Source: an uncultured Anaerolineales bacterium (lineage in GTDB: Bacteria > Chloroflexota > Anaerolineae > B4-G1 > SLSP01). Taken from it: DNA of 64,000 bases. The stretch is taken from NCBI GenBank assembly GCA_964504195.1, contig CAZDDI010000005.1, forward strand, positions 1,175-65,174, in the 5' to 3' direction. The position numbers and the translations under genes were made by a program. This document shows positions 25,322 through 47,966 of the stretch, one piece after another. The number at the start of each line of letters is the position of its first letter. Positions within the stretch are counted from its first letter, which is position 1. The notes below the pieces were generated by a model. It was not told where the DNA came from, did no database searches, and was given only the letters and a program-made list of their open reading frames with translations.

Positions 25322-25324
25322 CGT

Positions 25325-25368
25325 GCTGCGTACTGCGTAAATTCCGGATTACGCAGTACGCAGTACGC
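25325..25368. repeat. Palindromic extragenic element, GTACTGCGTAA family, copy 1
   Basis: GCTGCGTACTGCGTAA-attccgga-TTACGCAGTACGCAGTACGC lies directly after the stop codon. A related copy is at 62358-62401. Confidence 0.5.
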
Positions 25369-25410
25369 AATAGCCGACACGCAACTTCCCCTAGAGAGGT
25401 AATCCTAGCC

Positions 25411-28400
25411 ATGACCCATCCCACCTTCAAAATGACCCTGACCCCCGACGGCGCGGCACTGCAAGCCTACGCCTGGGCAGAGAGCGCTGCCGCTTGGCGC
25501 GCGTGGTCGCCCTATGCGCTGCGCATCCTGCGCAAGCCCTACCGCCACGCGCGCACCCACCTGGAACTCACCGATGATGTCGTGAGCACCCTGTACGATC
25601 CGCAGTCCCAGCGCAACACCCCGGCGGCCTTTGGGCTCGCCAATGTGCCCGAACTGGGCCTCGTCCAGGTCTACGGCGGGCTGGCGACGGCAGACTCCCA
25701 AGAACTGGCCGTGCAAACGGCGGCGCTGCACTCCGCGCGCCTGGTCGCCGCGCTGCAAGGTCGCTTCCGGCAGTCGCGGTTCACGCTACTCGCCGCCGAA
25801 GAAGCCACGGCGTTCTACCGGCATCTGTGGGCTTGCCGCTGTACGGCGTCCCTGATCGGGCAACTGGTGCCCCGGATCGCGCCGGGGATGGGCTCCGGGC
25901 ACGGTATCAACCAACTGGTGACCACCGATGTCCAAGAACAACTGGAAGTCATCGCCGCGGCGCTGGCGGGGGAGCCGTTCGCCGTCCTCACCCTGGCGCA
26001 TCCCCTAAACGCGCTGGACATCCGGCAAATGCTGGCGGATACGGCGCAAGCCCTGAGTTACTTCGCTTCCAAAGTAAAGCAGAGCGAGTCGGCGAATATC
26101 AGCGCCGTGCTGCCGCTGTTTATCAACCCCGTGGCGCTGTTCAGCGAGCAGAGCCAGCGCACGACGCAGGTGGCGCGGGGCGACCAGCGGTTGACCAGCG
26201 AGCAAAACGCACACCGCCTGGCCGCCGGGCAGTCCGATGGGGTCACGGCTTACCGGCGAGAAACCGCCAGTAGCGCACAGCATCAGGGCGCGGAACGCAC
26301 GAGTTACCACGAGGAGCAGCGCAGCAGCGAGAACATCCGCGAACACGAAGAAAGCCGCGTCAATCTGGAACGCGACTATGCCGAGGCGTATAGCCTCGCG
26401 CGCTCCTACCAGGGCCGCGAGGCCGGGACGCTGACCACGCAGGGGCAGCGGGACGCCGATCAGACCGGGCAGCGGCAGCAGCACACGGCGGAACAGGGGC
26501 AGTTGCACAGCGTCGAAAGCATTGATGAGCAGGTCGCCGGCGTGCGCTCCGGCGCGGGCAGCCGCTCCAGCGTGGAAGCCTTCAGCGTGGGCGAACGCTA
26601 CGCCGGCGGCAGCAGTCGCGCCTGGCAGGGTAGTTATGATGAACAGACGCAGCGCGCGTTCAGCGGCGCGGGCCAGGAGCACACGGCGGAGGGCTATCGG
26701 CAAGCCGAGCAGCGCGCCGGCAGCCTGGTCAGCGGCGAGACCTTTGCGCGCACGACAGAAAACACGGTGCAGGGCGAGGGGGCACAGCTGCAGACCTACG
26801 CCGAGCGCGGCGTCGAAGGCGACCTCTCGCCGCGTGTTTTCGGCATCGGCGGCGGGGAAGTCATGGCGGCGGGCGAACGCGGCCATCTCACGCAGAGCCG
26901 CGACTCCGAACTGGCCCAGGCCGAAGGCGCGGCTAACCTGGTGCGCCAGACGCAGCAGGGCGAGGTGACGACCGGGGCGCAGGTGGCCGACAGCGCCTAC
27001 CAGCGCAGCGGGCAGCAGCAAGAAGGGCTGGGGCAGACCTGGCAAGGCCAGGAAAGTGTGCAGACCGCCGAGTGGCGCAGCGGGGGCGGGACGCGGAGCA
27101 GCCAGCTGGCCTATGGCTACAGTGAAGCCTATCAGGACGCCAGCCACACTGACCGGCAGGCGCAGCGCGCCTGGGACAGTCAGGTAGACCAGGACGCGGC
27201 CTGGCAGCAGGCGACCCGCGAGGGCTACCAGGGCGTCGAGCGTTTCGCGCGGGCGTTCGGCGGCAGTTACAGCGAGGCCGGGCAGCGCAGCGGGCATCTT
27301 TCACAGCAGGATGTGATCACTGCCGACCGCAACCTACAACGTGAGACCGAGCGCGTGCTGGACGGGTTCCGCGCAGAGACCTTCGCCGGGCACCGCGACA
27401 GCCAGGAGCAGGTGGCCGGCGTGGAAGCGCGGCAGGATGCCAAGATCGGCGCGGGGCGCGAGTTCGTGCAGGCCCAGGCCGCCGAACAGGTGGGGACGGC
27501 GGTAAGCGCCGCGGGGCGCACGCAGGTAACGACGCGCGGCGTCATGGGGCCGTCGGGCGGCTCGCTGGTGGCCGGGCTGGCCTTTGCGCGCCAGACCGTG
27601 GATATGCAGCGCGATCTGGTGGCGCAGTTGCTCGAGCAGCAGGTGCAGCGCCTGAACGCCGGGCTGGACACGGGGCTGTTCCTGACGCAGGTGACGCTGC
27701 TGGCCCCCGATGAATCCCGGCTGGAACGGCTGGCCGCCGCCGCGGTCGCCGCGATGCGCGAGGAGCACGTCGTGGTGCCGGTCGCGGTGCGCTCCGGGGA
27801 TGCGACGCTCTGGCAGCGCGCGGTGGCGCTGGACTTTGATGCGCGCCGCGAAGATGCCGCCGCCGGGCCGTTCGAGGCGTTGCGCCACGCGCAAACGCTC
27901 ACCGCCAACGAACTGGCGGCACTGGTGCATCCCATCAGGATTTCCGATGGGACCATTTCGGCCTCGCTGGACGCCTGGCCCGATGACCTCTCGCACCGGC
28001 GCACGCAGGGCGAGATCGCGCTGGGCCGGGTACTGGATGTGAACTTGCAGCCCGATTCTAACAACATCCACCGCTTTCGCGCCGATGAACTGATGCACGC
28101 CGTCATTGTGGGCGACTCCGGGTCAGGCAAGTCCAATTCGGCCTTGTGGTTTGTGTCGCAGGTAGTCAACGCTGTGCGCCAGGACGCGCAGGGCGACCCC
28201 CTCCCCGCGCCGACCACCGGGCCGGTGACGCCGCTGGCCCTGGGCGGGACGCCGCGCATCGGGGTGACGGTCTTCGATCCCACCGGGGAATGGCGCAAGT
28301 TGGGCAAGTTGATCCCGGCGGCGGACTTCCGGTACTACTCGCTGACGGATCCGCAGACGTATCCGTTACGGTTCAACCCCTTGCGCATCCCCAGCCCCTA

Positions 28401-29373
28401 CCTGGAACCGGCGAAGTGGGCGGCGGCGCTGGCGAAGCAGTGGCTGCTGGCGTACCCCGCCGGGGCGACGGGCTTCCACCACCTCAAGGGCGCGGTGCTC
28501 GACGCCTACCGCGCAGCGGGGGTCATCGAGCCGGACGGCAGCGCGCACCTGGAACGCTCGGCGAATCTGTGTATGGCCGACCTGCAACACGCCCTGGCCG
28601 CGCGCCTGGAGAAACTCCGCGAGGAGCGCAGCGATACGATTACGGCGGGGGTGGTCAAGCGCATTCTCGACAAGTTGGAAGAATTCCTGCCCGGCGGGGC
28701 GTATCACCGGGCCTTCGGGCAACCGGGTGGCACGACGGTGGTCGAGTGGACGGCTCCTGACAAGGCTACCGTGATCACCGGTAAGTTCGGCGATGACGGG
28801 CCGCTCAAGCAGTTCATCATCGGCCTGATGGTAGCAGGCATCTACCAGCACGCGGACGAGCGGTATGAGCATTACCTGCGCCAGCGGCGCACGATTCCGC
28901 AGCATTTGCTCTTCGTCGAGGAGGCCCATGTGGTGATGCGCTCGGACGCGAGTACCCAGACGGAAATCGCGCAAGCCATTGGCGAGGACGCCGGGCTGTG
29001 GAACAACATCACCGACCGGGGGCGGAAACTGGGGCTGTATCTGTGGACGTCGGCGCAGCATTGGGAGCCGTTGCCGGCGGGGGTAGTAACATCGAGCAGT
29101 ATTGCGATTATCCAGAAGGTAAGTACAATCAAAGATGCTGAGATCGCAGTCTCGAAGGCGGGGCGGCTACCGGGAAAGACCAGTATTGACGACTACTCGA
29201 AGTGGACGCTGAGTGTGCTCAATATGCCTACCGGGGTCGGCTACGTCCGGCGCACGCGGAAGACGCTCAGCCAGGAAGACGAGATGGAGATCTTCCCGGT
29301 GAACTTCGTGGATATTTCGGGGATTGCGCCGCCGTCGGATGCGGAGTTGGGGAGGATTGTGGTGAGGAAGTAA
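25411..29373 (+). CDS. Large protein (1320 aa): N-terminal domain, ~600-aa Q/E/R/G/A-rich low-complexity region, C-terminal HerA/VirB4-like (DUF87-type) P-loop ATPase
   Basis: Walker A AVIVGDSGSGKS. Walker B LLFVEEAH. GAGAGGTAATCC Shine-Dalgarno at the 25411 start; the listed ORF start at 25180 overlaps the previous gene. Confidence 0.6.
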   Translation: MTHPTFKMTLTPDGAALQAYAWAESAAAWRAWSPYALRILRKPYRHARTHLELTDDVVSTLYDPQSQRNTPAAFGLANVPELGLVQVYGGLATADSQELAVQTAALHSARLVAALQGRFRQSRFTLLAAEEATAFYRHLWACRCTASLIGQLVPRIAPGMGSGHGINQLVTTDVQEQLEVIAAALAGEPFAVLTLAHPLNALDIRQMLADTAQALSYFASKVKQSESANISAVLPLFINPVALFSEQSQRTTQVARGDQRLTSEQNAHRLAAGQSDGVTAYRRETASSAQHQGAERTSYHEEQRSSENIREHEESRVNLERDYAEAYSLARSYQGREAGTLTTQGQRDADQTGQRQQHTAEQGQLHSVESIDEQVAGVRSGAGSRSSVEAFSVGERYAGGSSRAWQGSYDEQTQRAFSGAGQEHTAEGYRQAEQRAGSLVSGETFARTTENTVQGEGAQLQTYAERGVEGDLSPRVFGIGGGEVMAAGERGHLTQSRDSELAQAEGAANLVRQTQQGEVTTGAQVADSAYQRSGQQQEGLGQTWQGQESVQTAEWRSGGGTRSSQLAYGYSEAYQDASHTDRQAQRAWDSQVDQDAAWQQATREGYQGVERFARAFGGSYSEAGQRSGHLSQQDVITADRNLQRETERVLDGFRAETFAGHRDSQEQVAGVEARQDAKIGAGREFVQAQAAEQVGTAVSAAGRTQVTTRGVMGPSGGSLVAGLAFARQTVDMQRDLVAQLLEQQVQRLNAGLDTGLFLTQVTLLAPDESRLERLAAAAVAAMREEHVVVPVAVRSGDATLWQRAVALDFDARREDAAAGPFEALRHAQTLTANELAALVHPIRISDGTISASLDAWPDDLSHRRTQGEIALGRVLDVNLQPDSNNIHRFRADELMHAVIVGDSGSGKSNSALWFVSQVVNAVRQDAQGDPLPAPTTGPVTPLALGGTPRIGVTVFDPTGEWRKLGKLIPAADFRYYSLTDPQTYPLRFNPLRIPSPYLEPAKWAAALAKQWLLAYPAGATGFHHLKGAVLDAYRAAGVIEPDGSAHLERSANLCMADLQHALAARLEKLREERSDTITAGVVKRILDKLEEFLPGGAYHRAFGQPGGTTVVEWTAPDKATVITGKFGDDGPLKQFIIGLMVAGIYQHADERYEHYLRQRRTIPQHLLFVEEAHVVMRSDASTQTEIAQAIGEDAGLWNNITDRGRKLGLYLWTSAQHWEPLPAGVVTSSSIAIIQKVSTIKDAEIAVSKAGRLPGKTSIDDYSKWTLSVLNMPTGVGYVRRTRKTLSQEDEMEIFPVNFVDISGIAPPSDAELGRIVVRK

Positions 29374-29482
29374 GGCAGGATGCGGTGCAAGATATTTTGA
29401 AATGAACTGGTATGCACCAGCTGCGGATATTGGGTGTAGGGGCTAGAAAATTTGACTTTTAGTTGAACTACTATATTATTGT

Positions 29483-29520
29483 GGACATGGCTCAAAACCC
29501 TGGAGAAGTCAGTTTGACAC
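29483..29520 (+). mobile_element. Solo terminal inverted repeat related to the IS at 36929-38532
   Basis: GGACATGGCTCAAAACCCTGGAGAAGTCAGTTTGACAC is ~34/36 identical to the reverse complement of that IS's right IR. The tip faces outward, to the left. Confidence 0.6.
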
Positions 29521-29541
29521 TTTCTGAAATAAGGAAATCTT

Positions 29542-31032
29542 ATGAACACAGCAAATTATATTTTACAATATGGTCAAGACGAAACTATAGCAATTATCAC
29601 AGAAAAATCCCAATATACCTACAAAGATCTGCGGAGTGCTGTGAACAAAATCGCTACCAAAATTCTAAGTATTGGAATTCTGCCTGGCGATGCAGTTGGA
29701 CTGCTTAGCGCAAACTCTTTGTTTTGGGTGGCTTCATATTTAGCCATTATGAAAATAGGGGGTATTGCAGTACCCTTTTCAACAACTTTGACAACAAAAC
29801 AATTTCAGCAAGCAGAGAGTTTTATTAAATGTAAGGCGATTTGTTTGCAGGAACTTTATCGTAGTAGATATGTGAGTGCATTAAAAAACAAACTGCCAAT
29901 AGTTAGCGAAAACATCCTGTTACCAACTGATTCAATGACGGTCGAAGAATCGCCGGAGACGGTGATAACTGATCCAGAGCAAGATGCAGCTTTCATGCTA
30001 ACTTCTGGAACAACTTCAGAGCCTAAGGTCGTGAGAGTTTCACATGAGAATATTCAATCGAATACCGAATCAATAATCAGCTATTTGGAAATCACTAATT
30101 CAGATCGCATAATGGTCATTCTTCCCTTCTTCTATTGCTTTGGTACATCTTTGTTGCATACACACTTGAGAGCGGGGGGCTCGCTTGTTATAAGCAATCG
30201 TTTTGCTTTCCCAGAAACCGTATTGAACTTGATGGAAACATATAATTGTACAGGCTTTGCTGGGGTGCCATCTACATATCAGATACTTCTCAGAAATACT
30301 ACTTTTCCCAAGCGTAAGCTGCCAATGTTAAAAAAAATCCAACAAGCTGGGGGAAAACTACCTTCTGTTCTCATAAAAGAGTTAAGGGCTATTTTGCCGG
30401 ATTCTAACATCTATATTATGTATGGACAAACAGAAGCTACAGCTCGACTATCGTATTTACACCCCGAAATGCTTGAAAGAAAATTAGGTTCAATAGGCAA
30501 GGGAATTCCAGGTGTTGAGTTGCGTGTAGTAGGAAGTCAAGGTATTGATGTTAGCCACGGTGAAGTTGGTGAAATCGTTGCAAAAGGAAAGAACATCACA
30601 AAAGGGTACTTGAATGATCTGCAAGCAACTGCGGTGAAGTTTAGAGACGGTAATCTGTATACAGGAGATTTAGCTACAGTAGATGAAGATGGCTTTATCT
30701 ATATCGTTGATCGTTCGAGTGATTTTATTAAATCATATGGACATCGAGTTAGTAGTCAACAGATTGAAGGTTGCATTTCAGAACTTCAAGATGTTATAAG
30801 CACAGCAGTTATTGGTGTTCAAGACGTTGTTCGAGGAGAAGCTATAGTAGCTTATGTAACTTTACATAAGAAATCTATTCTTTCTTCTGAGAATATAATC
30901 GCACACTGCAGACAAACACTACCAAGTTATATGATTCCGCGTGATGTGATCGTAGTAAGTGATCTGCCTATGAACGAACAGGGAAAGATATTGAAATCGG
31001 CACTCAAACAACAAGTCTTGGGTGAATTGTAG
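29542..31032 (+). CDS. AMP-dependent synthetase/ligase (acyl-CoA or acyl-ACP synthetase family)
   Basis: MLTSGTTSEPK (AMP-binding core), YGQTEA, and YTGDLA...DEDGFIYIVDRSSDFIKSYG motifs. AT-rich codon usage. Confidence 0.8.
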   Translation: MNTANYILQYGQDETIAIITEKSQYTYKDLRSAVNKIATKILSIGILPGDAVGLLSANSLFWVASYLAIMKIGGIAVPFSTTLTTKQFQQAESFIKCKAICLQELYRSRYVSALKNKLPIVSENILLPTDSMTVEESPETVITDPEQDAAFMLTSGTTSEPKVVRVSHENIQSNTESIISYLEITNSDRIMVILPFFYCFGTSLLHTHLRAGGSLVISNRFAFPETVLNLMETYNCTGFAGVPSTYQILLRNTTFPKRKLPMLKKIQQAGGKLPSVLIKELRAILPDSNIYIMYGQTEATARLSYLHPEMLERKLGSIGKGIPGVELRVVGSQGIDVSHGEVGEIVAKGKNITKGYLNDLQATAVKFRDGNLYTGDLATVDEDGFIYIVDRSSDFIKSYGHRVSSQQIEGCISELQDVISTAVIGVQDVVRGEAIVAYVTLHKKSILSSENIIAHCRQTLPSYMIPRDVIVVSDLPMNEQGKILKSALKQQVLGEL

Positions 31033-31049
31033 AGGGAGTTTAATATTCT

Positions 31050-33035
31050 ATGTGTGGTATTGCGGGTGCGATAGACCTAACTGGTGATAATCAGAATCCA
31101 TTTCCTGACGTTCGAACAATGGTTTCTATGTTAAAACATCGTGGCCCGGAAACTACGGGAGTCTACCATAGTAAATTTGTACACTTTGCTCATGCTCGGT
31201 TAAGCATTATTGACCTAGAAGGCGGTTTACAACCTATACCAAATGAAGATCGTACGCTTTGGGTAATCTGTAATGGGGAGTTTTATAATTTTATAGAGCT
31301 ACGAGAATTTCTGACAGCCAAAGGCCATCAATTCCTCACCGCTTCCGATACAGAAGTTCTTTTACACTTATATGAAGAAATAGGGGATGAGGCTGTAAAC
31401 AAACTTAACGGACAGTTTGGATTCGCTCTTTGGGATAGTGTTCGCCGCCGGCTATTACTTGGCCGAGATCGCTTTGGTATTCGCCCCCTCTTTTATGCAG
31501 TGAAGGACAATTATTTGCTGTTCGCGTCCGAAGTGAAGGCATTACTGGCTGCCAAAATCCAAACTCGCGTCGATTTTCATTCCTTAGCTCAAGTGTTTAC
31601 AACTTGGTCCCCCTTACCTGGAAAAACTATGTTAAAAGATGTATCTGAGGTTTTGCCTGGTCATATAGTCACGGTTAAGGTGGGAGAGGGAGTTGAATCG
31701 CGACCATATTGGCAATTGCAATTTCCAGCTAAAGAAGAAAGGCTTGACGGAGAAAAACTTGCTATCGAGGTAGAATCTATAAGAGAGGCGCTAACTAATG
31801 CTGTAAAGATTCGATTGAGAGCAGATGTACCAGTTGGTGCCTACCTAAGCGGAGGCCTGGATTCAACTTTTATCACGAGTCTTGCTCAAAAGATGAGTAA
31901 TCATCCTTTACATACTTTTTCTATTACATTTGATGATCCAGAATTTGACGAGAGTGAGTATCAATATCAAGTTGCTCACGAAATAGGTACAATTCACCAT
32001 ATTGTAAAATGCGATGTGCAAACAATTCGCAGAAATCTGCCGGACGTTGTATGGCACACTGAAACACCAGTACTTCGATTAGCTCCCGTTCCTATGTACC
32101 TTTTAGCACAATTAGTAAACCAACACAAGATAAAAGTGGTATTGACAGGTGAAGGTGCTGATGAATTTTTTGGAGGTTACGATATTTTTCGAGAAGCAAT
32201 GGTCCGACGTTTTATAGCCAGGGACCCTACTTCCAATATCAGACCTTTATTACTGAAGAGGTTATATGCTCACCTGCCTAATTTAAGCAAGCTCAGCCCT
32301 TCTTTGCTAAAAAAGTTTTATTGTAGAGATTCTGATAACTTATCCTCACCATACTATAGCCATACGCTTAGATGGGATAATACTTACCGTGCTTCTCGCC
32401 TGTTCTCCAAAGAACTTCTTCAGTATTTGCAGGATTATAATGTAATTGATGATATATCCACTTTGGTACCCAAACAAATAGAACAATGGTCTTCTCTTTC
32501 CCAAGCGCAGTACTTGGAAAGCGTTTTCTTCTTATCAAGCTACCTACTATCTTCTCAGGGAGATCGTATGGCTATGGCTCATGCAGTCGAAGGGCGATAT
32601 CCTTTCTTAGATCACCGACTTATAGAGTTGATTAATCAAATGCCTTCAAGATTTAAAATCAATGGGCTGCGGGGCGAAAAGTACATTCTCAAGTTAGCCT
32701 CCAGGGGATTGGTGCCTGATGTTATTAGATCTCGTTCAAAGTATCCTTATCGAGCTCCTGTTCAAAGTGTGTTTTCTAATCTTGCATTGCCCGATTATGC
32801 AAAGGAACTGTTATCAACAGTGAAATTGAAGACAAGTGGCTGCTTTGATCCGGTATTTGTACAAGAACTTGTAAAGAAGATACAAGAAGCACGATTCGTC
32901 GGGGAAATGGATCAAATGGCTTTTGTGGGCATTTTAACATATCAGATATTCCATGATCTTTTTATTGAAAAATTCAATGTTTCTGCACAATACAAACAAT
33001 CTGATTTTATAGATGTTACCAAAGTGTGGAATTAA
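31050..33035 (+). CDS. asnB: Asparagine synthetase B-family glutamine-dependent amidotransferase
   Basis: N-terminal MCGIAG with nucleophilic Cys2. PP-loop SGGLDS. 661 aa. Confidence 0.85.
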   Translation: MCGIAGAIDLTGDNQNPFPDVRTMVSMLKHRGPETTGVYHSKFVHFAHARLSIIDLEGGLQPIPNEDRTLWVICNGEFYNFIELREFLTAKGHQFLTASDTEVLLHLYEEIGDEAVNKLNGQFGFALWDSVRRRLLLGRDRFGIRPLFYAVKDNYLLFASEVKALLAAKIQTRVDFHSLAQVFTTWSPLPGKTMLKDVSEVLPGHIVTVKVGEGVESRPYWQLQFPAKEERLDGEKLAIEVESIREALTNAVKIRLRADVPVGAYLSGGLDSTFITSLAQKMSNHPLHTFSITFDDPEFDESEYQYQVAHEIGTIHHIVKCDVQTIRRNLPDVVWHTETPVLRLAPVPMYLLAQLVNQHKIKVVLTGEGADEFFGGYDIFREAMVRRFIARDPTSNIRPLLLKRLYAHLPNLSKLSPSLLKKFYCRDSDNLSSPYYSHTLRWDNTYRASRLFSKELLQYLQDYNVIDDISTLVPKQIEQWSSLSQAQYLESVFFLSSYLLSSQGDRMAMAHAVEGRYPFLDHRLIELINQMPSRFKINGLRGEKYILKLASRGLVPDVIRSRSKYPYRAPVQSVFSNLALPDYAKELLSTVKLKTSGCFDPVFVQELVKKIQEARFVGEMDQMAFVGILTYQIFHDLFIEKFNVSAQYKQSDFIDVTKVWN

Positions 33036-33055
33036 GCTGTTTTTAGGAGAGAAAT

Positions 33056-34030
33056 ATGAATTTCAACAAAGACATACTAGTTATTGACCCTGTTCACGAA
33101 GTAGAAAGGCTATCTGCGCTTATTCATGAATCACTTTTCAATAGATTCAAACGCAAAGGGGCTGTAATAGGAGTTAGTGGTGGAGTAGATTCCGCTACAA
33201 CACTGGCATTAGTTGTAAGAGCTATCGGGGCAGAAAACGTAATTGCGATAGCGATGCCAGATCAAGATTCCAATCCTGTGAGCGAAATTTTGGGAAAAGA
33301 TATCGCTACTAAATTCGGTGCATCTTTTGTCAAAGAAGACATAACACCGGTCCTTATCTCGCTCAAATGTTATGAACACCGCGATTCTGCTGTACGCAAA
33401 GTCTTCCCAGATTACAATCCAGATACAGATGGAATAAAATTAGTTTTGCCTACTGATTTATTGGGTAAAGGCAGTTTGAACGTATATTCTTTGGCGCTAG
33501 TTCGTAATGGAGAAGAGATTGGCCGACGTATTCTTCCCGCCCCCGTGTATCTAGAAATTGTAGCAGCATCAAATATGAAGCAGAGAACTCGTATGTTGAC
33601 ACTTTATTATCATGCTGAAAAACGGAATTACGCTGTTATAGGAACTGCTAACAAGAATGAACATGCGCAAGGTTTCTTCGTTAAGTATGGCGACGGAGGT
33701 GTTGATATACAACCTATTTTACACTTATACAAAACGCAGATTTATCAACTGGCGCAATACTTAAATGTGCCACAGGAAATAATAGATCGAACACCTACAA
33801 GTGATACTTACAGCGCTGAATGTACGCAAGAAGAATTCTATTTCAGACTCCCCTTTGAACTTATGGATTTGATCTGGTATGGATTTGAGCATGAGGTTTC
33901 TCCTGAAATAGTTGCTAATGAACTAAACCTTGCTACCAAACAGGTAGAAAACGTATATAGGGATCTAGCTCAAAAAGCAAGAAGCACTGAATACTTGCGT
34001 ATGGTTCCAATTACTAGCAATTCCAACTAA
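33056..34030 (+). CDS. NAD synthetase (NadE)-family PP-loop ATP pyrophosphatase / amidating enzyme
   Basis: GVSGGVDS PP-loop. YGDGGVDIQPI...LYKTQIYQLAQYLNVP matches the NadE-family C-terminal signature. Confidence 0.7.
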   Translation: MNFNKDILVIDPVHEVERLSALIHESLFNRFKRKGAVIGVSGGVDSATTLALVVRAIGAENVIAIAMPDQDSNPVSEILGKDIATKFGASFVKEDITPVLISLKCYEHRDSAVRKVFPDYNPDTDGIKLVLPTDLLGKGSLNVYSLALVRNGEEIGRRILPAPVYLEIVAASNMKQRTRMLTLYYHAEKRNYAVIGTANKNEHAQGFFVKYGDGGVDIQPILHLYKTQIYQLAQYLNVPQEIIDRTPTSDTYSAECTQEEFYFRLPFELMDLIWYGFEHEVSPEIVANELNLATKQVENVYRDLAQKARSTEYLRMVPITSNSN

Positions 34031-34078
34031 TCGAATTCTTAAATGTTTCTAAATCAATGACCCAGGGAGTGTAAGAAC

Positions 34079-34321
34079 GTGGAGATTAAAAACCGTATAC
34101 GTGAATTCATTATTACAAATTTTGTCACGGCTTCGGGAGTCTTTATAGATGACACTACTGCTTTGTTAGAGTCAGGTATTATTGACTCTACAGGTGTCAT
34201 GGAGATGCTACTCTTTGTCGAGGAAGAGTTTGATATCGAAGTTCCCCCCGAAGATCTTCTGCCTGAGAATTTTAACTCAATTGCAGGCTTGGCTGACTAT
34301 ATACAAAGAAAACTCACTTGA
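34079..34321 (+). CDS. Acyl carrier protein-like (phosphopantetheine-binding)
   Basis: 80 aa. LESGIIDSTGVMEML has the DSxxxxE-type Ser attachment motif. Apparent GTG start. Confidence 0.6.
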   Translation: MEIKNRIREFIITNFVTASGVFIDDTTALLESGIIDSTGVMEMLLFVEEEFDIEVPPEDLLPENFNSIAGLADYIQRKLT

Positions 34322-34355
34322 TCTTTCTCAGATTTAGATATTAAGGAGGGGAAAA

Positions 34356-35138
34356 ATGAGTTCCGCACAACTCAATTTTAGAGTTAACAAACCGGAGAAC
34401 ACAATCCGGATAGTATTTGTACATCATTCAACTGGGAGAAACCTAATACAACAGGGCGAAGTTCGGGAGTTAATGCAGACTCAAGCGTCGAGGACTGCGA
34501 TGCATTATGAATTTTGGGACCAAGACTATAACAAGATTGGTTTAAGTGATGCGTCTGGCAGCAAACTTGGGATAACTTTAAATATGCCAGGAGATAATAC
34601 TGACCCAGATGGGTTAGAAGCATTGTTTAGTCAACCAATTCATACTCCTCCAGACAATGCCTTAAGTGCTCTTCTCACTTTTGATGTGGTGATTTTCAAG
34701 TCTTGCTATCCAGTTTCAGCGATTCATAATGAGGAACAGTTGGAGCGTTACAAGCAGCACTATTTACGAATACGAGAGACCATGTTAGCAAATCCACAAA
34801 CCTTTTTTGTGGTTATGACTCCTCCTCCATTAATACCAAAACCATTTCCTGTATTTCCCGGGTCTTCTACTACACCAGAAGAAGCAAGGCGCGCAAGAGA
34901 GTTCGCAAATTGGTTAACGTCTGGAGAATTCATAGCAGAACTATCTAATGTTGCTGTTTTCGACTTTTTTGATTATTTAGCTGCGCCTGATGATTCTTCA
35001 AAACAAGCAAATATGCTCCGTGCAGAATATCGAAGCCTCTTAGGGTTTGATTCACACCCAAATTCGACCGCAAACAAAGCAGTCGCTCCGCTATTTGTGG
35101 ATTTTATCGTTAAAGGGATTCAACAATTCTTCAACTGA
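34356..35138 (+). CDS. SGNH/GDSL-hydrolase-like protein, cytoplasmic paralog (tentative fold call)
   Basis: AAGGAGGGG Shine-Dalgarno. Blocks VFVHHSTG, MPGDNTD (GxND-like) and DSHP (Asp/His-like) resemble the SGNH blocks I, III and V. Confidence 0.55.
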   Translation: MSSAQLNFRVNKPENTIRIVFVHHSTGRNLIQQGEVRELMQTQASRTAMHYEFWDQDYNKIGLSDASGSKLGITLNMPGDNTDPDGLEALFSQPIHTPPDNALSALLTFDVVIFKSCYPVSAIHNEEQLERYKQHYLRIRETMLANPQTFFVVMTPPPLIPKPFPVFPGSSTTPEEARRAREFANWLTSGEFIAELSNVAVFDFFDYLAAPDDSSKQANMLRAEYRSLLGFDSHPNSTANKAVAPLFVDFIVKGIQQFFN

Positions 35139-36058
35139 ATCTTCTTATAGCTAGCATTTTGTGACAACTCGTTTAGTTTTTAAGGATGTATTAGATGGTG
35201 AATAGTTCCATAAGTCAGGTTAAAAAAGCAAGATTACTATTTTTCACAATACTTTTGATAATTCTTTTCCTCTTAGGGCGAAGTTGGTTGCGTCCACAAG
35301 AGATATGGCCCTTTATTCTTAATGAAGGACAAAACAAACCGGAGAACACAATCCGGATAGTATTTGTACATCATTCAACTGGGAGAAACCTAATACAACA
35401 GGGCGAAGTTCGGGAGTTAATGCAGACTCAAGCGTCGAGGACTGCGATGCATTATGAATTTTGGGACCAAGACTATAACAAGATTGGTTTAAGTGATGCG
35501 TCTGGCAGCAAACTTGGGATAACTTTAAATATGCCAGGAGATAATACTGACCCAGATGGGTTAGAAGCATTGTTTAGTCAACCAATTCATACTCCTCCAG
35601 ACAATGCCTTAAGTGCTCTTCTCACTTTTGATGTGGTGATTTTCAAGTCTTGCTATCCAGTTTCAGCGATTCATAATGAGGAACAGTTGGAGCGTTACAA
35701 GCAGCACTATTTACGAATACGAGAGACCATGTTAGCAAATCCACAAACCTTTTTTGTGGTTATGACTCCTCCTCCATTAATACCAAAACCATTTCCTGTA
35801 TTTCCCGGGTCTTCTACTACACCAGAAGAAGCAAGGCGCGCAAGAGAGTTCGCAAATTGGTTAACGTCTGGAGAATTCATAGCAGAACTATCTAATGTTG
35901 CTGTTTTCGACTTTTTTGATTATTTAGCTGCGCCTGATGATTCTTCAAAACAAGCAAATATGCTCCGTGCAGAATATCGAAGCCTCTTAGGGTTTGATTC
36001 ACACCCAAATTCGACCGCAAACAAAGCAGTCGCTCCGCTATTTGTGGATTTTATCGTT
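34389..36058 (+). repeat. Tandem gene duplication: ~720-bp near-identical segments (34389-35110 and 35337-36058)
   Basis: Offset of ~948 bp. Identical antisense spurious ORFs at 34384..34623 and 35319..35570. Confidence 0.85.
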
Positions 36059-36091
36059 TCTAGTGTTGAAAAATGGTGTGCAGGTAGATAG
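35195..36091 (+). CDS. SGNH/GDSL-hydrolase-like protein, membrane-anchored paralog
   Basis: Same core as 34356..35138 but with an N-terminal transmembrane anchor KKARLLFFTILLIILFLLG and a different C-terminal tail. Confidence 0.55.
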   Translation: MVNSSISQVKKARLLFFTILLIILFLLGRSWLRPQEIWPFILNEGQNKPENTIRIVFVHHSTGRNLIQQGEVRELMQTQASRTAMHYEFWDQDYNKIGLSDASGSKLGITLNMPGDNTDPDGLEALFSQPIHTPPDNALSALLTFDVVIFKSCYPVSAIHNEEQLERYKQHYLRIRETMLANPQTFFVVMTPPPLIPKPFPVFPGSSTTPEEARRAREFANWLTSGEFIAELSNVAVFDFFDYLAAPDDSSKQANMLRAEYRSLLGFDSHPNSTANKAVAPLFVDFIVSSVEKWCAGR

Positions 36092-36093
36092 CA

Positions 36094-36840
36094 ATGATAG
36101 AGGAAGAAAAAACACCTTTCTGGCAAAAAGCAGGCAAATTCCTACTTCGATGGAGTCTAAGTAAGCATTTTGCCCATATCTATTTGCGTCCCCAGAACTA
36201 CAATATCCCCTATAACAAACCTGTTATGCTGTGTATTAACCACAGTTGCAGATGGGACGTTCCTTTATCGTTATTCTTATCTGAATCTATCCTACAGTTA
36301 GATAGCTATCTTATGGCGGCTCCTCAGGTTATACAAAAATACCCACTTATGTGTAGATTTGGGTGTTTTGAAGCAGATAGCTCTAATCCTATAGAAACTA
36401 CCCGGACTCTTAAATATGCGTCAACTCTTATAAGTGGTAAAAGTGATCGTTGCTTAATCATGTTTCCACAGGGAAGGTATAAGAGAAGCTATCAACGCCC
36501 TTTGGATTTCCGCCCTGGATTTGCTCAAATAGCACGTATAACACGCCCAGTAATCATCCTACCAGTAGCTTTTTATTATGAATACTTCATAGAAAGAATC
36601 CCCGAAGCATTTGTCAGCATAGGTCCTCCGGTGTTTGTTGAATCTCAAATTACGACCAACAAATTAGTCGAAGATGTTGAAGTAGCAGTAACCCGAGAAT
36701 TGGATGCTTTGCAGAAAGATATTACAAATAATCAACTTGATGAATTTATCGCTATACTTGAAGAGCAAAAGAATATGCTTATAAAACTGTGGCATAGATT
36801 TGACTCAGAATGGATAGAGAGAGCTAAACGTACACTTTAA
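36094..36840 (+). CDS. PlsC-family (lysophospholipid / 1-acylglycerol-3-phosphate-type) acyltransferase
   Basis: HxxxxD motif CINHSCRWDVP. ATGA overlap with the upstream gene. Confidence 0.7.
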   Translation: MIEEEKTPFWQKAGKFLLRWSLSKHFAHIYLRPQNYNIPYNKPVMLCINHSCRWDVPLSLFLSESILQLDSYLMAAPQVIQKYPLMCRFGCFEADSSNPIETTRTLKYASTLISGKSDRCLIMFPQGRYKRSYQRPLDFRPGFAQIARITRPVIILPVAFYYEYFIERIPEAFVSIGPPVFVESQITTNKLVEDVEVAVTRELDALQKDITNNQLDEFIAILEEQKNMLIKLWHRFDSEWIERAKRTL

Positions 36841-36928
36841 ACTCTCTGCTAAAGTTATAGAAAACACCATTTTCTTATATTAGGAAATAATAAGGTGTGA
36901 GATCTTGTAAAAACTCAGGGCGTTTTTT

Positions 36929-38532
36929 GGCATGGCTCAGAATCAGTTTGACACTTGGCAAACCGGCAGAAGCCCCGATAATACCGCTAACTTGAAGGGG
37001 GAGGGCTGGGCCATGGCAGCACGAAAATCTTTGTCGGTGACAGAGCGGCGGACGATTGCGGTAAAGATGTTGGACCCGGAACGCCCGCGCGGCACCCCCG
37101 GGCAATTGGCTGAGCAGTATAACCTGAGCCGACAGATGACGTACTATCTGGCGGATCGCGCGGAAAGGGCATTGGACGCGGCCCTGACGCCCCGCTCGGG
37201 GCCAGAGCCGCAGGATACGGTCATCACTGTCACCCCCGCGCGGTTGCGCCGGGCGGTGACCTTGGCGGCGTTGGTGGGCGTGTCGCAACGAGACACCCAG
37301 CTGCTCCTGGCGGAAGTGTTGGACACGCAACGCTCGACAGGGTATGTGGCCCAGGTCCTGGCGCAGGCAGAGCACTTGGCTGCCGCGCGCAACGGCGAAC
37401 TCCAGCTGCCCTTGGCAGGATTGCTGGCCGCGGATGAGCTCTTCTTGCACGCGCAACCGATTCTGGGCGTGGTGCAGCCGGCCAGTTTGTTTATTGCGGA
37501 TCTGCGGCTGACGGCCCACCGCGACGGGACGACGTGGGGCTGCACATTTCTCGACTTACCCGAGGTCGCAGGGGTGATTAGTGATGCTGGAGCGGGCTTG
37601 GCGGCCGGGGGTACCCTGGCCGCAGTTCCCTGTCAGGTGGGGGATTGGTTTCACCCGTTGCTGCAAGCGGCGTATATTGAAGCACAATACGAGCGGCAGG
37701 CTTATGCGGCCTTGGCCAAAGTCTATGCGCGGGAGGAGCAGTTGGCTCAGACCACCACTACGAAACGCTGGGAAAACCATTGGCAACAATACCTGCGTGA
37801 GGACGCCGTCGCCGCCCAAGCCATTGAGCGCTATGACCAATGGCGGCTGTTGCGGTGGCAGTTGCGCGCGTTGGCGGGGCAGTTTGACTGGGATACCGGG
37901 GCGGTACGTCAGCCGGAGACGGTGCAAGCGCACCTGCTGCTGCTGGCCGACCGCTTGGCCCCGTGGGCCGTGGGCACGCTGGCTCAGGCGCTGGTCCGCT
38001 TGCTGCGCACCCAAGCCGCAGCCTTGACCGTGGGACTGCCGCAACTGGCCCAAGCCCTGCAGCCGTTGGCGCAAGCTTGGGGAGCAGAGGCCGTCCGTGT
38101 GGTCTGCCGCCTGAGCCAAGCGTTGCACGAAGCTGCCTGTCCGGCCTGGTTGCCAGCGCAACGCCGCCACCTGGAACAGGCCATCACAGAGAGCCTCGCT
38201 TGGGCCAGTGCCTACCTGGGGCCCCATCTGGCGACCCTGCAACGCCTGCTGGCGGCCATCTTGGCCTACTGGCCGCGCACCAGCAGTGCCATCGAGTGCC
38301 TGAATAGCCTGTTGCGCCCGTATTTGAACGGCCGCAAGCAGGTCGATCAAGGGTTTCTGGACCTCTTCCGTTTCTATCATAACACCCATTGCTTTGTGCG
38401 GGGCAAGCGTGCGGGGGCCACGCCCCTGGAATTGGCCGGTGGTCCGGCGATTCCCGACCCGCTCGCCTTCCTCGGCCTCGGAGCAAAATCCTGATTTGTC
38501 AAACTGACTTCCCTAGGGTTTTGAGCCATGCC
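36929..38532 (+). mobile_element. Complete insertion sequence, tentatively IS256-like, with perfect 8-bp target-site duplication
   Basis: IRL GGCATGGCTCAGAATCAGTTTGACAC and IRR (reverse complement) GGCATGGCTCAAAACCCTAGGGAAGTCAGTTTGACA. Flanking direct repeat CGTTTTTT at 36921-36928 and 38533-38540. The body is GC-rich inside the AT-rich island. Confidence 0.7.
37010..38494 (+). CDS. Transposase (C-terminal TSSAIECLNSLLR resembles the IS256/mutator TTNxIExLN signature)
   Basis: Annotated ORF is 36932..38494. The ATG at 37010 has a GGGGGAGGG Shine-Dalgarno. N-terminal HTH-like segment. Confidence 0.65.
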   Translation, partial: AMAARKSLSVTERRTIAVKMLDPERPRGTPGQLAEQYNLSRQMTYYLADRAERALDAALTPRSGPEPQDTVITVTPARLRRAVTLAALVGVSQRDTQLLLAEVLDTQRSTGYVAQVLAQAEHLAAARNGELQLPLAGLLAADELFLHAQPILGVVQPASLFIADLRLTAHRDGTTWGCTFLDLPEVAGVISDAGAGLAAGGTLAAVPCQVGDWFHPLLQAAYIEAQYERQAYAALAKVYAREEQLAQTTTTKRWENHWQQYLREDAVAAQAIERYDQWRLLRWQLRALAGQFDWDTGAVRQPETVQAHLLLLADRLAPWAVGTLAQALVRLLRTQAAALTVGLPQLAQALQPLAQAWGAEAVRVVCRLSQALHEAACPAWLPAQRRHLEQAITESLAWASAYLGPHLATLQRLLAAILAYWPRTSSAIECLNSLLRPYLNGRKQVDQGFLDLFRFYHNTHCFVRGKRAGATPLELAGGPAIPDPLAFLGLGAKS

Positions 38533-40019
38533 CGTTTTTTGACTTCGAATTTTTTCTTGTTCTTGTGTATAGACCCTACCCATCCCGCCGCCAGTAACAT
38601 GCACCGTTGGGTCGCTTAATAATATTGTTTGGCACGCAAAAAGTTATTCGTTAAGAAAAGTGGTAATTCTTTATGTGTAACTTTTTTGAGGGGGTTTTAC
38701 TAGGATATCTTGAAGCAGCATTTAGAGCATGGAAAGACATGTTATTTGAAGAATTCTCTTGAAAGAAGTTTTTCTGTTCACCATTGATTGTTGCGTTATG
38801 GGTAATTATTCTAGGTCCTATGGTTGTTCCCTGATGGTCACTACATATTAGACATTATCGGAAATAAGGATTTGCAACTTGAATCATAAAATGTTCATAG
38901 TAAATTTTTAGCAATATAATACAAGGTTGTATTTGCGGTGTACTCACCCCATTTTAAGCAGGGAACATACTCTTATTCTTGCGCTATCACATAAAAAAAC
39001 AATCTTTACTACAAAACCTTTCACAAGGTGTGCCCCGCGAGATTTATTGCCTCATTGTCACATTATCAAGGATATTTTAAGCGGTATTACCACAGATTTT
39101 TAAGAAATAGCGATGGAGTTCTTCATAGATTGCACAACTTGTTTATTTTATTGCGCAAGATAAGATATTTCGTTTTATTTTTAATTTGCGTGGAATATCA
39201 AAAAATTATTTAAGATAATGTCTATTGATTGGAGCCAGCGCAGTAGGAATGGAGCGGATTACCTTGAAACATGGAAAGCGTTATTACGAAAGCCTCCTAG
39301 TAAATTTATGCAAAAAGAAAGAGATACTAGATGGTTACTCAAAAAAAATAACTCGCTTCTTAAGTTGTGGAGATAATTAACAGCCACTGATATCAAACAG
39401 AGTTATGTGAATAGTTTCTCAAAGCGACAGATTTACATATCTAATTCTATATCAGATTAAGTAATAAATATAGTTTGCGTATTTTAAAAATAATCTTTAA
39501 ATGAAGAAAATCACAGTAATAGGAAGTGGTAATGTCGGCGGTTCTATAGCCCAACGGCTTGCAGATGCGGGGGGAGTTAATATTGTCCTGGTTGACAGAC
39601 TTGGGGATTTAGCGCGAGGAAAAAGCCTTGACCTTTATGAGTCCCTGCCCCTTATTGGTATAGATACTGATATCGTTGGTACTTCAAATTATGAGGAGAC
39701 AGCAGAATCGGATGTTGTAATCATCACAGCAGGCATTCCGCGCAAATCGAAAATGACGAGGAATGATTTACTGGATTCGAATGCGGAAATTGTTGCGGAG
39801 TGTGTATCGGCAGCTATCGAGTATTCTCCCAATAGTATTTTACTCATAGTAACTAACCCAGTATGTGCTATGTCTCATGTGGCTTACATCGCCAGCAAAT
39901 TCCCCAAACAACGTGTTATTGGGTTGTCTGGTTTGTTAGATACATCACGTATGAGAGCTTTTATAGCTACCGAAATTGGTGTTTCTGTGGAGAGCATTCA
40001 GGCACTTGTAATAGGTGAC

Positions 40020-41212
40020 CTAGCCACCGGACACTTTTTTCAAAAGTACGGTAGCCAGTAGATACGGAACGTCTCTTCATTGGTAATGTGGCGATTGACC
40101 ATCTCCAAACCAATGCGGAAAATGCTCAAATCCCGGCGGTCGGCCCGGTCGACCAGATACCGCTGACTGTTTTTGATGACCCGGGAACCATAGGCGATGA
40201 GCCACAGGTAGACCAAGACCACCCCTAAAGTCAGGCGGGAGAGGCGCAAAAAATGGCGGAGTTGGGTGCTTTCTAAATCAAAACCGTGCCCCTTGAGATC
40301 GCCAAACAGCTCCTCAATCCACATCCGTTTGCGGTACAAGCGCAAGGCTGCGCGGAGATCGGGAAAATTGGTCGCCAAGAGCCAGGGGTGAGCTTCTCCG
40401 GGCTGCCAATAAGCGGCCAGGTTGACGTGATAGGCGTGCTTGTGGGTCAGCTGGGCTTGGGGGTGCCACACCTGTTGGCGCCAGCGCGTGATCAGGGTTG
40501 CAAAGGGCTGCCACCCGCCCTGAGGCTGGACTTGGACCTGGGTATCGCGGGCTTGGCGCAAGACATATTTCCAACCCACGCGGTCTAACCATTTTAATAC
40601 CGCTACTGCGCCAAATTCACCGTCTCCCGCCAGATACACTTGTGCGCCGGCGGGCATTAAGCTGTGAACGTAGGCCAGCAAGGCTATTTGTTTCCGGCCA
40701 CTACTGTGCCCGCGCGGGCCTTGCACCCACGTCCAGGCGATAGGAATGGCCCGCCGCCGATAAGCGACTGCCACCATCAGCAGTTGGTGATTAAAGCCAA
40801 TTTTGCTGCCATCGAGCAACAACCGAATCGGCAGGCCCTGGGCGACGATTTCAGCCAAGATGTTTTCCGCGAGTGGGCGATACCAAGCGCGCACGCGAAT
40901 GGCCGGGTTGTCCAGCAGCCGGCGGATTTTGCGGGTCTTGCTGGGATTGGTGGCCGGGCCCGGAATTTCCTTCGCCACCTTGTACAGGTATACCGACCCG
41001 CAAAAGAACAGGCCCATCAAGAACTGGGCGAAGACTTTTAAGCGGCCCTGATGTTCATCCGGCAACCAGGTTGCCAAATCCGCGTGTAGTTGATGTGCTA
41101 ATTGACTGCGTGCATTCATAGAACCTCCTTGCAAGATTATGCTTATTTATAACCATATAATTATTGTTTATCTTTGTCAAGTCATTCCTGACAAAAAGTG
41201 TCCGGTGGCTAG
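40020..41212 (-). mobile_element. IS4-family insertion sequence (1193 bp) with 20-bp terminal IRs and 9-bp target-site duplication
   Basis: IRs are CTAGCCACCGGACACTTTTT at 40020 and the reverse complement ending at 41212. Direct repeat ATAGGTGAC at 40011-40019 and 41213-41221. Confidence 0.8.
40040..41134 (-). CDS. IS4-family DDE transposase
   Basis: YRKRMWIEELFGDLK matches the IS4 Y-x2-R-x3-E-x6-K signature. 364 aa. GC-rich. Confidence 0.8.
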   Translation of the reverse strand: MQGGSMNARSQLAHQLHADLATWLPDEHQGRLKVFAQFLMGLFFCGSVYLYKVAKEIPGPATNPSKTRKIRRLLDNPAIRVRAWYRPLAENILAEIVAQGLPIRLLLDGSKIGFNHQLLMVAVAYRRRAIPIAWTWVQGPRGHSSGRKQIALLAYVHSLMPAGAQVYLAGDGEFGAVAVLKWLDRVGWKYVLRQARDTQVQVQPQGGWQPFATLITRWRQQVWHPQAQLTHKHAYHVNLAAYWQPGEAHPWLLATNFPDLRAALRLYRKRMWIEELFGDLKGHGFDLESTQLRHFLRLSRLTLGVVLVYLWLIAYGSRVIKNSQRYLVDRADRRDLSIFRIGLEMVNRHITNEETFRIYWLPYF

Positions 41213-41955: not shown

Positions 41956-42002
41956 GGGGAGGCCGCGACAATGCCCGGTATTGTTGCGACCTCCCCTTTT
42001 TT
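41956..42002 (+). terminator. Rho-independent terminator
   Basis: GGGGAGGCCGCGACAAT...ATTGTTGCGACCTCCCC followed by TTTTTT, at the right edge of the AT-rich island. Confidence 0.6.
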
Positions 42003-42035
42003 GTTGTCCCCAATCCCATACCCAGGAGTCACAAC

Positions 42036-47962: not shown

Positions 47963-47966
47963 CCCG

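Follow-up and report, generated by a model that had tools for sequence, protein, structure and literature searches.

The comparisons presented here concern seven adjacent genes at positions 29542 to 36840 of a 64,000-nucleotide stretch of DNA (hereafter the window) from an uncultured Anaerolineales bacterium (contig CAZDDI010000005.1 of assembly GCA_964504195.1), and lead us to favour, at about even confidence, the reading that they form an operon acquired by horizontal transfer. It would encode a pathway of acylation by way of a carrier protein, with a conserved gene module that lacks any earlier description as its basis, and in this pathway an amide-bearing acyl group on an acyl carrier protein (ACP) would be passed to a lipid or glycan of the cell envelope. 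In this combination a known theme, envelope decoration by way of a carrier protein, is joined in a new manner to amidation by PP-loop enzymes. The seven co-oriented open reading frames (ORFs) lie on the plus strand, are all intact and are separated by 17, 20, 48, 34, 56 and 2 bp; they amount to six distinct genes, namely those for a ligase, an AsnB-type enzyme, a NadE-type enzyme, an ACP, an SGNH-fold protein (present twice) and a PlsC-type enzyme, and both sequence reading and profile searches find their catalytic motifs intact. An original prediction made from the same DNA had given the co-oriented genes these domain types, and when each protein was searched against Pfam and NCBIfam every assignment was upheld, those to the SGNH and NadE families included, while no curated named system was recovered. 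The genes are as follows.

29542 to 31032, plus strand: adenylate-forming acyl ligase, 496 amino acids (Pfam AMP-binding 2.7e-68 and AMP-binding_C 1.3e-16)
31050 to 33035, plus strand: AsnB-type glutamine-hydrolysing amidotransferase, 661 amino acids, with an N-terminal Cys glutaminase domain and a PP-loop synthetase domain
33056 to 34030, plus strand: divergent NadE-type PP-loop amidating enzyme, 324 amino acids (PF02540 1.4e-49; NF002048 423 bits, cut-off 313)
34079 to 34321, plus strand: dedicated ACP, 80 amino acids, with the phosphopantetheine serine in IIDSTG
34356 to 35138, plus strand: SGNH-fold protein, cytoplasmic form, 260 amino acids, without signal or anchor
35195 to 36091, plus strand: SGNH-fold protein, N-terminally membrane-anchored form, 298 amino acids, with a catalytic domain identical to that of the upstream SGNH gene
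36094 to 36840, plus strand: PlsC/LPLAT-type acyltransferase, 248 amino acids (PF01553 41 bits, cut-off 23)

The case for a module comes from its recurrence in other genomes. We compared neighbourhoods, taking one genome per species, in two groups split by NadE identity: at least 22 loci of the NadE paralogue of ~320 amino acids (40-55% identity) and, as a control, at least 58 loci of ordinary NadE (27-33%), 57 of which were scorable. Among the loci listed, to which all counts of loci given here refer, a ligase lies within 5 kb in 19/22 of the NadE-like loci against 2/57 of the ordinary ones, an ACP in 16/22 against 0/57 and AsnB in 13/22 against 0/57, several of the misses among the 22 being contigs cut at their edge. 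All-against-all clustering of the neighbours returned ligase, ACP and AsnB as the only conserved ones, and the neighbourhood comparison that had been suggested for the quartet of AsnB, NadE-like enzyme, ACP and ligase finds it conserved across these loci. They span at least 12 phyla, including the archaeon Methanoregula; the taxa of the 22 are Anaerolinea, Bacteroidota, Ignavibacteria, Zixibacteria, Rhodocyclaceae, Eubacteriales, Manganitrophaceae, Brucellaceae, Sorangium, Cellvibrio, Verrucomicrobiota, Actinomycetes, Fibrobacter, Acidobacteriota, Gemmatimonadota and Methanoregula. Gene order varies, from ligase-AsnB-NadE-ACP in L011 (Chloroflexales) to AsnB-NadE-ACP-PPTase-SGNH-...-PlsC-PlsC in L013, where a phosphopantetheinyl transferase (PPTase) gene adjoins that of the ACP, and in L014 and L015 the trio or quartet sits inside glycosyltransferase/Wzy/Bac_transf loci. 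Additional support for the link of the NadE-like enzyme to ligase and ACP comes through fused proteins, some of which may be merged gene calls: ligase-NadE fusions (P0263, 849 amino acids and complete, and P0392, partial), a NadE-PPTase fusion (P0265), NadE with AMP-binding_C and PP-binding domains (P0268) and NadE with an AsnB glutaminase domain (P0314).

The NadE paralogue stands apart from its ordinary relatives. By sequence it belongs to the NadE family, carrying the PP-loop SGGVDS and the GTxNxxE...GDG motifs and scoring above the NF002048 cut-off; it aligns to the P. horikoshii NadE 2e18 as two blocks that flank an insertion at residues 103-169. An insertion of ~50 amino acids marks the subfamily, and the spacing from PP-loop to GTxNxxE is 152-156 amino acids in 39 of its members versus 93-117 in 52 ordinary NadE proteins. 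Since a glutaminase domain is missing from the paralogue, its nitrogen presumably comes from ammonia, either free or channelled. An exhaustive HMMER search matched it to 291 clusters (50% identity) at E <= 1e-30; they come from Chloroflexota, Bacteroidota, Ignavibacteria, Proteobacteria, Myxococcota, Acidobacteriota, Firmicutes, Fibrobacter, Verrucomicrobiota and Methanoregula, which makes the module widespread, and at 55-65% identity there are thousands of relatives, mostly from Chloroflexota and named 'NAD(+) synthase'. One could take such names at face value and suppose that AsnB and NadE are housekeeping asparagine and NAD synthetases that stand beside lipid genes with no joint pathway, and both do pass the generic models (TIGR01536 and NF002048). 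We consider this highly improbable. Synteny, the common insertion and the fusions (to ligase, PPTase and ACP) together make a housekeeping NAD role unlikely for the subfamily, and WbuX-like PP-loop enzymes take the place of one of the pair in other loci. A separate 283-amino-acid NadE also occurs on the contig of L010, a non-module locus, although this shows only that ordinary NadE is encoded away from such clusters in a Chloroflexota-type genome.

Where no contig end interrupts a module locus, it encodes in most cases two PP-loop enzymes, drawn from AsnB, NadE-like and WbuX-like proteins, and the pair is mostly AsnB and NadE. NadE is found with a WbuX-like enzyme and no AsnB in L025, L026 and L036, and AsnB with a WbuX-like enzyme and no NadE-like one in L176, L097 and the contig of P0013; the WbuX-like proteins align over their full length to TIGR03573 ('N-acetyl sugar amidotransferase') at 87-142 bits, below its cut-off of 203. 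In L022 and L033 the NadE-like protein is the sole PP-loop enzyme, and in L037 it occurs without other module genes. A more specific proposal, which we put forward tentatively and hold to be possible though rather unlikely, is that the ~320-amino-acid paralogue is no NAD synthetase at all and instead serves the carrier-protein pathway, adding with the second PP-loop enzyme two nitrogens, one after the other, to the ACP-bound acid, to give either a diamide or, as the chemistry of QueC and WbuX would allow by analogy, a conversion of carboxylate to amide and on to amidine or nitrile. If true, this would be the first member of the NadE family to act on a non-pyridine substrate.

In other organisms the module lies mostly within surface-polysaccharide loci. 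In a Pfam scan of 148 variable neighbours the commonest families were glycosyltransferases (GT4/GT1, 7; GT2, 4), hexapeptide acyltransferases (4), aldo-keto reductases (4) and methyltransferases (4), with Bac_transf and Poly_export seen three times each and Wzy_C twice. Wall proteins with SLH domains stand on either side of L176 and of its relative. AsnB genes annotated wbpS are known from an extracellular polysaccharide (EPS) cluster (PMC3684757). This context raises the question of whether the cluster simply belongs to the exosortase-A (XrtA/PEP-CTERM) EPS set, itself an uncharacterised trio of ligase, ACP and amidotransferase tied to polysaccharide loci, and in every locus tested TIGR03098 and TIGR03108, the nearest curated families for ligase and AsnB, were indeed the best or second-best specific NCBIfam models. 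All scores nevertheless fall below the cut-offs: TIGR03098 gives 315 bits for the window ligase, its best specific match, and 302-485 for the ligases of six further module loci, where 592 is required, and TIGR03108 gives 422 bits for the window AsnB and 389-419 in its relatives against 817. XrtA is known as a Gram-negative system, whereas the module also occurs in phyla, and in an archaeon, where such a system would not be expected. The module moreover has a second PP-loop enzyme of NadE or WbuX type, while the XrtA set is not known to have a NadE-type member, and the PLP decarboxylase and alpha/beta-hydrolase partners of that set are missing from most sampled module loci. Pfam scans of the larger ORFs of the window returned no exosortase, PEP-CTERM, lipopolysaccharide (LPS), EPS or glycan genes, in agreement with the earlier statement that exosortase and LPS core genes are absent nearby. 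With the scores below cut-off and no exosortase linkage we exclude membership in both exosortase-A families and regard this explanation as very improbable. The earlier view that the set matches no classical named pathway likewise stands: no NCBIfam model names the module, and searches of the open-access literature found no description of the gene combination. The module has no described function so far, though such an absence from the open-access literature is no proof of novelty.

The window ligase is a class I adenylate-forming enzyme (PF00501/PF13193) with a TSGTTSEPK motif and its catalytic Lys in the GK of NEQGKILK. Its nearest solved structures are the oxalate-CoA ligases 5ie0 (1.7e-57) and 6qjz and the malonyl-CoA synthetase 4fuq, followed by MenE and FadD13, and its identity to the oxalate and malonate ligases is ~30-35%. 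At the position of the alpha-amino-binding Asp of gramicidin synthase LgrA (FDxS, A4 motif) it has a Cys, and module ligases of its type have Cys, Ile or Val there, so that an amino-acid-activating enzyme in the manner of a nonribosomal peptide synthetase (NRPS) A domain or of DltA is rejected for lack of the Asp. Because of these solved relatives, and because Cys replaces the amino-binding Asp, the likeliest substrate is a small carboxylic acid other than an alpha-amino acid, and judging by its relatives it may be a short dicarboxylate. A dicarboxylate would leave the tethered acyl group with a free carboxylate, which would account for the amidating enzymes downstream in the pathway. A second subtype, with the motif LPL[AS]FDYG, is seen among the module ligases of L015, L024, L025, L027, L030, L032 and L162.

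The original prediction had instead allowed for a fatty acid on the ACP, and nothing about the ligase points there, its nearest solved relatives being oxalate- and malonate-CoA ligases. In that version a fatty acid would be loaded on the ACP and the product would be an amidated lipoamino acid or aminolipid, a membrane lipid similar to ornithine or glutamine lipids. FadD-type models are among the NCBIfam matches of the ligase, the PlsC family includes the aminolipid O-acyltransferase OlsA, the window ACP weakly matches the ornithine-lipid ACP model NF052616 (34 bits), and in L007 and L013 the genes for ACP and SGNH proteins are accompanied by a pair of PlsC genes and by those for a DedA/VTT protein and a CMAS-type methyltransferase. 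Yet that ACP score is far under the cut-off of 130, a thioesterified fatty acid would leave no free carboxylate to amidate, the best solved relatives of the ligase are short-dicarboxylate enzymes and the conserved module lies mostly in polysaccharide loci. Profile searches of the cluster also found no N-acyltransferase of the OlsB/GNAT or FeeM type, and the N-acyl amino acid synthase that a lipoamino acid would need is not present, so that the proposed amidated lipoamino-acid product lacks support. We judge this whole reading unlikely.

The ACP, which the window ligase would load, belongs to the PP-binding family (PF00550; 4.6e-7, 30.4 bits against a Pfam cut-off of 20.8), and its DS motif is invariant in 27/27 module ACPs. 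The AsnB-type protein (Asn_synthase 2.1e-90 plus GATase_7 in Pfam; TIGR01536 500 bits, cut-off 267) falls by sequence in the superfamily of glutamine-hydrolysing asparagine synthases (TIGR01536, PF00733 with GATase_7, Cys2 and SGGxDS), with both its N-terminal MCG (MCGIAG) and its PP-loop SGGLDS intact. Among module AsnB proteins MCG is present in 23/28 and the PP-loop in 27/28, and of the five without MCG three are cut by a contig end and the remainder have an uncertain start call. The nearest PDB entries are 7ylz (8.5e-58), the trichostatin hydroxyamidotransferase, which is homologous to AsnB but has an acid other than aspartate as its substrate, and 1ct9, the AsnB of E. coli. Such relatives invite a reading in which the product is a soluble small molecule, either an amide starter unit (malonamyl, OxyD-like) or an amide or hydroxamate natural product, with the SGNH enzyme as releasing thioesterase. 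AsnB homologues do act in natural-product pathways, the nearest being hydroxamate-forming; the ligase resembles malonyl-CoA synthetase; the SGNH fold matches SsfX3, an acyltransferase of a tetracycline pathway; and L013 adds a PPTase, a metallo-beta-lactamase-fold hydrolase and a DUF1330 protein, and L011 an amidohydrolase. However, no ketosynthase, polyketide synthase (PKS), NRPS or exporter was found in the window or in the 27 module loci listed, glycan assembly genes are the commonest neighbours, and the membrane-anchored SGNH copy and the PlsC-type enzyme point to a membrane-associated acceptor. A soluble product therefore seems to us quite unlikely.

Both SGNH proteins show the features of the SGNH/GDSL hydrolase-acyltransferase fold, namely a flavodoxin-like fold with the block I Ser, the block III Asn and the block V Asp...His, and the anchored one has a hydrophobic segment, LLFFTILLIILFLLGRSWL (Kyte-Doolittle 2.37), with Lys-Lys-Ala-Arg just before the anchor and with residues 5-30 predicted to be helical in a structure model. 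The earlier description of two SGNH-like paralogues, one of them membrane-anchored, was right in fold and anchor, but in place of diverged copies we find a 726-bp exact repeat (34386-35111 = 35333-36058), the proteins differing only at the N-terminus (10 amino acids versus 46 with the anchor) and in the last 9-11 residues. In the independent assembly L002 a single SGNH gene joins the start of the first to the end of the second, and several contigs break inside the repeat; the duplication may be of very recent date or kept uniform by homogenisation, or else it may be a polymorphism or have been collapsed in some assemblies. Across the SGNH family about half the members have an N-terminal anchor or signal, and the clade nearest to the window has neither. 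The closest cytoplasmic relatives, among those listed, stand in operons of AsnB, a WbuX-like enzyme, a small ORF, ligase and SGNH (L176, the contig of P0013 and L097), and SGNH-fold proteins of this family adjoin module genes in L013, L018, L097, L125, L145, L153, L155, L161-L163, L167, L168, L171, L176 and L177, while in L011 and L014 the ACP is adjoined by weakly GDSL-like proteins that belong to other subfamilies. The last gene was rightly called a PlsC-like HxxxxD acyltransferase: besides its PF01553 score it has the motifs NHSCRWD (HX4D), MFPQGRY (FPQG) and ILPVAF (ILPV), and no solved structure was matched by its sequence. Homologues adjoin ACP and SGNH genes in L013 and L007, and among the loci listed the gene occurs only there and in the window; a word-index homologue search returned only the protein itself, and its distribution thus rests on these two loci.

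From the gene content, the intact motifs, the conservation of the module with its fusions and the structure of the island described below, we infer a route that would run as follows. The ligase would adenylate a small carboxylic acid, probably no alpha-amino acid and maybe a short dicarboxylate, and load it as a thioester on the dedicated holo-ACP. Each PP-loop enzyme would then use ATP for the adenylation of a carboxyl (or amide) group, to which it would add a nitrogen, the AsnB-type enzyme taking ammonia from glutamine, and an amide-bearing acyl-ACP would result; two such additions could give a diamide, or carry a carboxylate through an amide to an amidine or nitrile, a sequence for which the chemistry of QueC and WbuX is a precedent. 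The SGNH enzyme could receive the acyl group of the ACP on its own serine and, through this acyl-serine intermediate, hydrolyse or transfer it, while the PlsC-type enzyme would acylate a lyso-lipid or other hydroxyl, so that the acyl group would end on an envelope acceptor. The general logic of the original prediction, a carboxylic acid activated onto ACP, transferred and amidated at the expense of ATP, thus remains the best reading, while its fatty acid and lipoamino acid lack support. The acceptor here would be either a membrane lipid or a lipid-linked glycan. A membrane lipid is plausible for the lineage of the island because L007 pairs the SGNH/ACP/PlsC set, with its two PlsC genes, with a DedA/VTT protein and a CMAS-type methyltransferase. 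For most other lineages the gene context makes a glycan more likely, and since the module elsewhere lies mostly in surface-polysaccharide loci, the decoration of a glycan has no lower likelihood than an amidated lipid.

Several known systems share parts of this scheme. As in Dlt, an adenylate-forming ligase would load a small acid on a dedicated carrier protein of ~80 residues, and a membrane-anchored SGNH-type protein (DltD) helps to pass the group to an envelope polymer; Dlt, however, has no amidating enzymes, and the window ligase lacks the amino-binding Asp. The window proteins score 175 bits as DltA (cut-off 560) and 33 bits as DltC (cut-off 68), the SGNH proteins have no DltD-family Pfam match at E <= 0.01, and no MBOAT protein (DltB-type) was found in the window or in the Pfam counts of module loci; membership in Dlt is ruled out on these grounds. 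The sequence from ligase to carrier protein to an LPLAT-superfamily acyltransferase acting on a membrane lipid recalls AlmEFG, which modifies lipid A with glycine in Vibrio cholerae, and Aas, in which an acyl-ACP synthetase is fused to a PlsC-type acyltransferase. AlmG lies in the lipid A late-acyltransferase branch and not in PF01553, and the Aas model NF006386 matches the module ligase of L036 at 209 bits against a cut-off of 1221. Unlike the window cluster, AlmEFG and Aas are not known to include an SGNH partner or amidating enzymes of the PP-loop type. AlmG is cited in PMC11631085. With WbpS-type AsnB and WbuX/WbpG-type PP-loop proteins the module shares ATP-dependent nitrogen-adding enzymes placed in surface-glycan (O-antigen, EPS) loci, and WbuX-like proteins replace the NadE-like enzyme or AsnB in some module loci. 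WbpS- and WbuX-type enzymes are known to act on sugar (nucleotide) substrates and are not known to use a carrier protein, whereas the PP-loop enzymes of the module are tied to a ligase and an ACP. Finally, OxyD-type AsnB homologues make the malonamyl starter unit of tetracyclines; there the amidation takes place at the free carboxylate of a short dicarboxylate held as a thioester, and the resemblance of the window ligase to malonyl-CoA synthetases extends the parallel, although the window cluster has no polyketide synthase.

Composition profiles place the operon on imported DNA, and by this measure it is horizontally acquired. The features of the island and its borders are these, insertion sequence being abbreviated IS.

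~29385 to ~41900, no strand: low-GC imported island, ~40% GC apart from two IS inserts
29452 to 29479, plus strand: promoter-like site TTGACT-16-TATTAT, 10/12 matches, 63 bp upstream of the ligase ATG
29483 to 29519, plus strand: solo 37-nt terminal-inverted-repeat copy of the first IS element, 92% complementary to 38497-38533
36929 to 38533, plus strand: IS element, 1,605 bp, GC 0.642, with a 7-bp target duplication GTTTTTT and a 520-amino-acid ORF at 36932-38494
39501 to 41632, plus strand: malate dehydrogenase gene (mdh), low GC, split by an IS into Ldh_1_N and Ldh_1_C halves
40020 to 41212: IS4-family element inside mdh, with perfect 20-nt inverted repeats and the 9-bp duplication ATAGGTGAC (NF033591 176 bits)

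The GC content is 0.396 in the cluster, 0.334 in the spacer and 0.422 in mdh, against 0.629 and 0.684 in the flanks, which places the island ~25 points below its host (genome 63-68%); beyond the operon the island holds the AT-rich spacer, the mdh gene and two later IS elements of host-like GC. The polysaccharide context of the module, the low-GC island with its IS insertions and the exact SGNH repeat had all been missed by the original prediction. At least 5 independent assemblies contain the locus together with its left junction to high-GC DNA, two contain the right junction, and the identical junction in several assemblies rules out a chimera at the GC jump. The window is identical over 20,975 bases to the JGI contig Ga0334883_1000223 (L001), and an anaerobic digester in Wageningen is the origin of the source metagenome, 3300033177 (PMC10159854). 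The exact cluster proteins were seen only in this organism.

An import of this kind could also be inert cargo that is decaying in its host, whatever its role in the donor, and the GC difference, the two IS insertions, the broken mdh and the lack of acceptor-pathway genes nearby would all fit. Both IS insertions lie outside the operon, however, its seven ORFs are intact with their catalytic motifs, and the locus is identical in several assemblies, so that we consider inert cargo distinctly unlikely.

The IS element at 36929-38533 inserted after the island had arrived. Its 520-amino-acid ORF has no Pfam or NCBIfam match and tblastn against plasmids was empty, and the element may belong to an undescribed IS family; its left end is a shortened version of its right end. 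The solo copy of its inverted repeat lies directly upstream of the operon, facing inward, exactly at the left edge of the island; the motif has only two copies in the window, with none expected by chance, and the solo copy fits the right end of the IS better than does the element's own left end. No target duplication flanking the solo repeat was found when we looked for one. A composite or unit transposon spanning 29483-38533, with ends that match at 92%, was considered and rejected: GTTTTTT brackets only 36929-38533, there is no duplication at 29482/38534, and the low-GC DNA continues past the right end. Within mdh, removal of the IS4 element and one copy of its duplication restores the frame across the junction when read by eye. 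The promoter-like site is weak evidence for an operon promoter and is given as a candidate only, because such sites are no more numerous in the region than in shuffled sequence. Rfam scans of 28000-42500 and 1-7000 gave no match and the window contains no tRNA gene, and there is consequently no clue to the integration site.

Some observations weigh against the pathway that we favour. Its enzymology is taken from family membership throughout. An identity of ~30-35% to oxalate and malonate ligases does not fix the specificity of the ligase, and in other loci the second ligase subtype does have the amino-binding Asp, so that the acid activated by the module may differ from one lineage to another. 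The NadE paralogue retains the motifs general to its family and passes the NCBIfam 'NAD(+) synthase' model, and may therefore have NAD synthetase activity. The PlsC-like gene stands outside the conserved module (0/22 loci), and the window has no glycan genes by Pfam scans of its larger ORFs. Given the IS insertions and the broken mdh in the island, the operon may be silent in this host. The sample of loci, lastly, consists of matches listed in both collection scans, and its neighbour genes come from a simple ORF finder.

If the proposal of a NadE paralogue serving a carrier protein holds, it would point to a nitrogen-rich acyl decoration of envelope glycans or lipids, undescribed so far, in at least 12 bacterial phyla and a methanogen. 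Under the generic names 'NAD(+) synthase', 'asparagine synthase' and 'AMP-binding protein' that present annotation pipelines assign, NAD metabolism is over-predicted in these genomes and the pathway goes unnoticed. Carrier-protein-dependent envelope decoration of the Dlt and Alm kind alters surface charge, susceptibility to antibiotics and phages, and aggregation, and the module would add an amide-forming branch to it. The window also shows that the module moves, within the community of an anaerobic digester, between genomes of very different kinds, a setting in which envelope chemistry influences the formation of granules and flocs.

Elsewhere in the window, low GC is also seen between 1600 and 3600 (42.6% over 2001-4000), in a second patch that gave no Rfam match and where 1607 to 3589 contains no ORF of at least 90 amino acids, and at 5171-6017 direct repeats of 261, 113 and 67 nt (75-99% identity, spaced 116-351 bp) overlap a minus-strand ORF of 223 amino acids that has no Pfam match. 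The region 8907-17801 encodes an AAA_25 (RepA/RecA-like) ATPase, a CHC2-zinc-finger/Toprim primase, an NB-ARC STAND NTPase and a MalT-like AAA_16-TPR protein, and has the look of a variable region's segment, mobile or rich in defence genes, on the upstream side of the island. Two very large high-GC ORFs lie just upstream of the island, one of 2,237 amino acids (17835-24548) with right-handed beta-helix, NosD and InlB-B-repeat domains and with repeats inside its DNA (17994/19545, 95% identical, and a series with an 18-bp period at 21260-21470), and one of 1,397 amino acids (25180-29373) without a Pfam domain. Downstream of the island, in DNA of host GC, 45154-58284 holds a Tad/Flp-type pilus locus with genes for a CpaE-like ParA ATPase, two T2SSE ATPases, an RcpC/CpaB-like protein and two T2SSF proteins.

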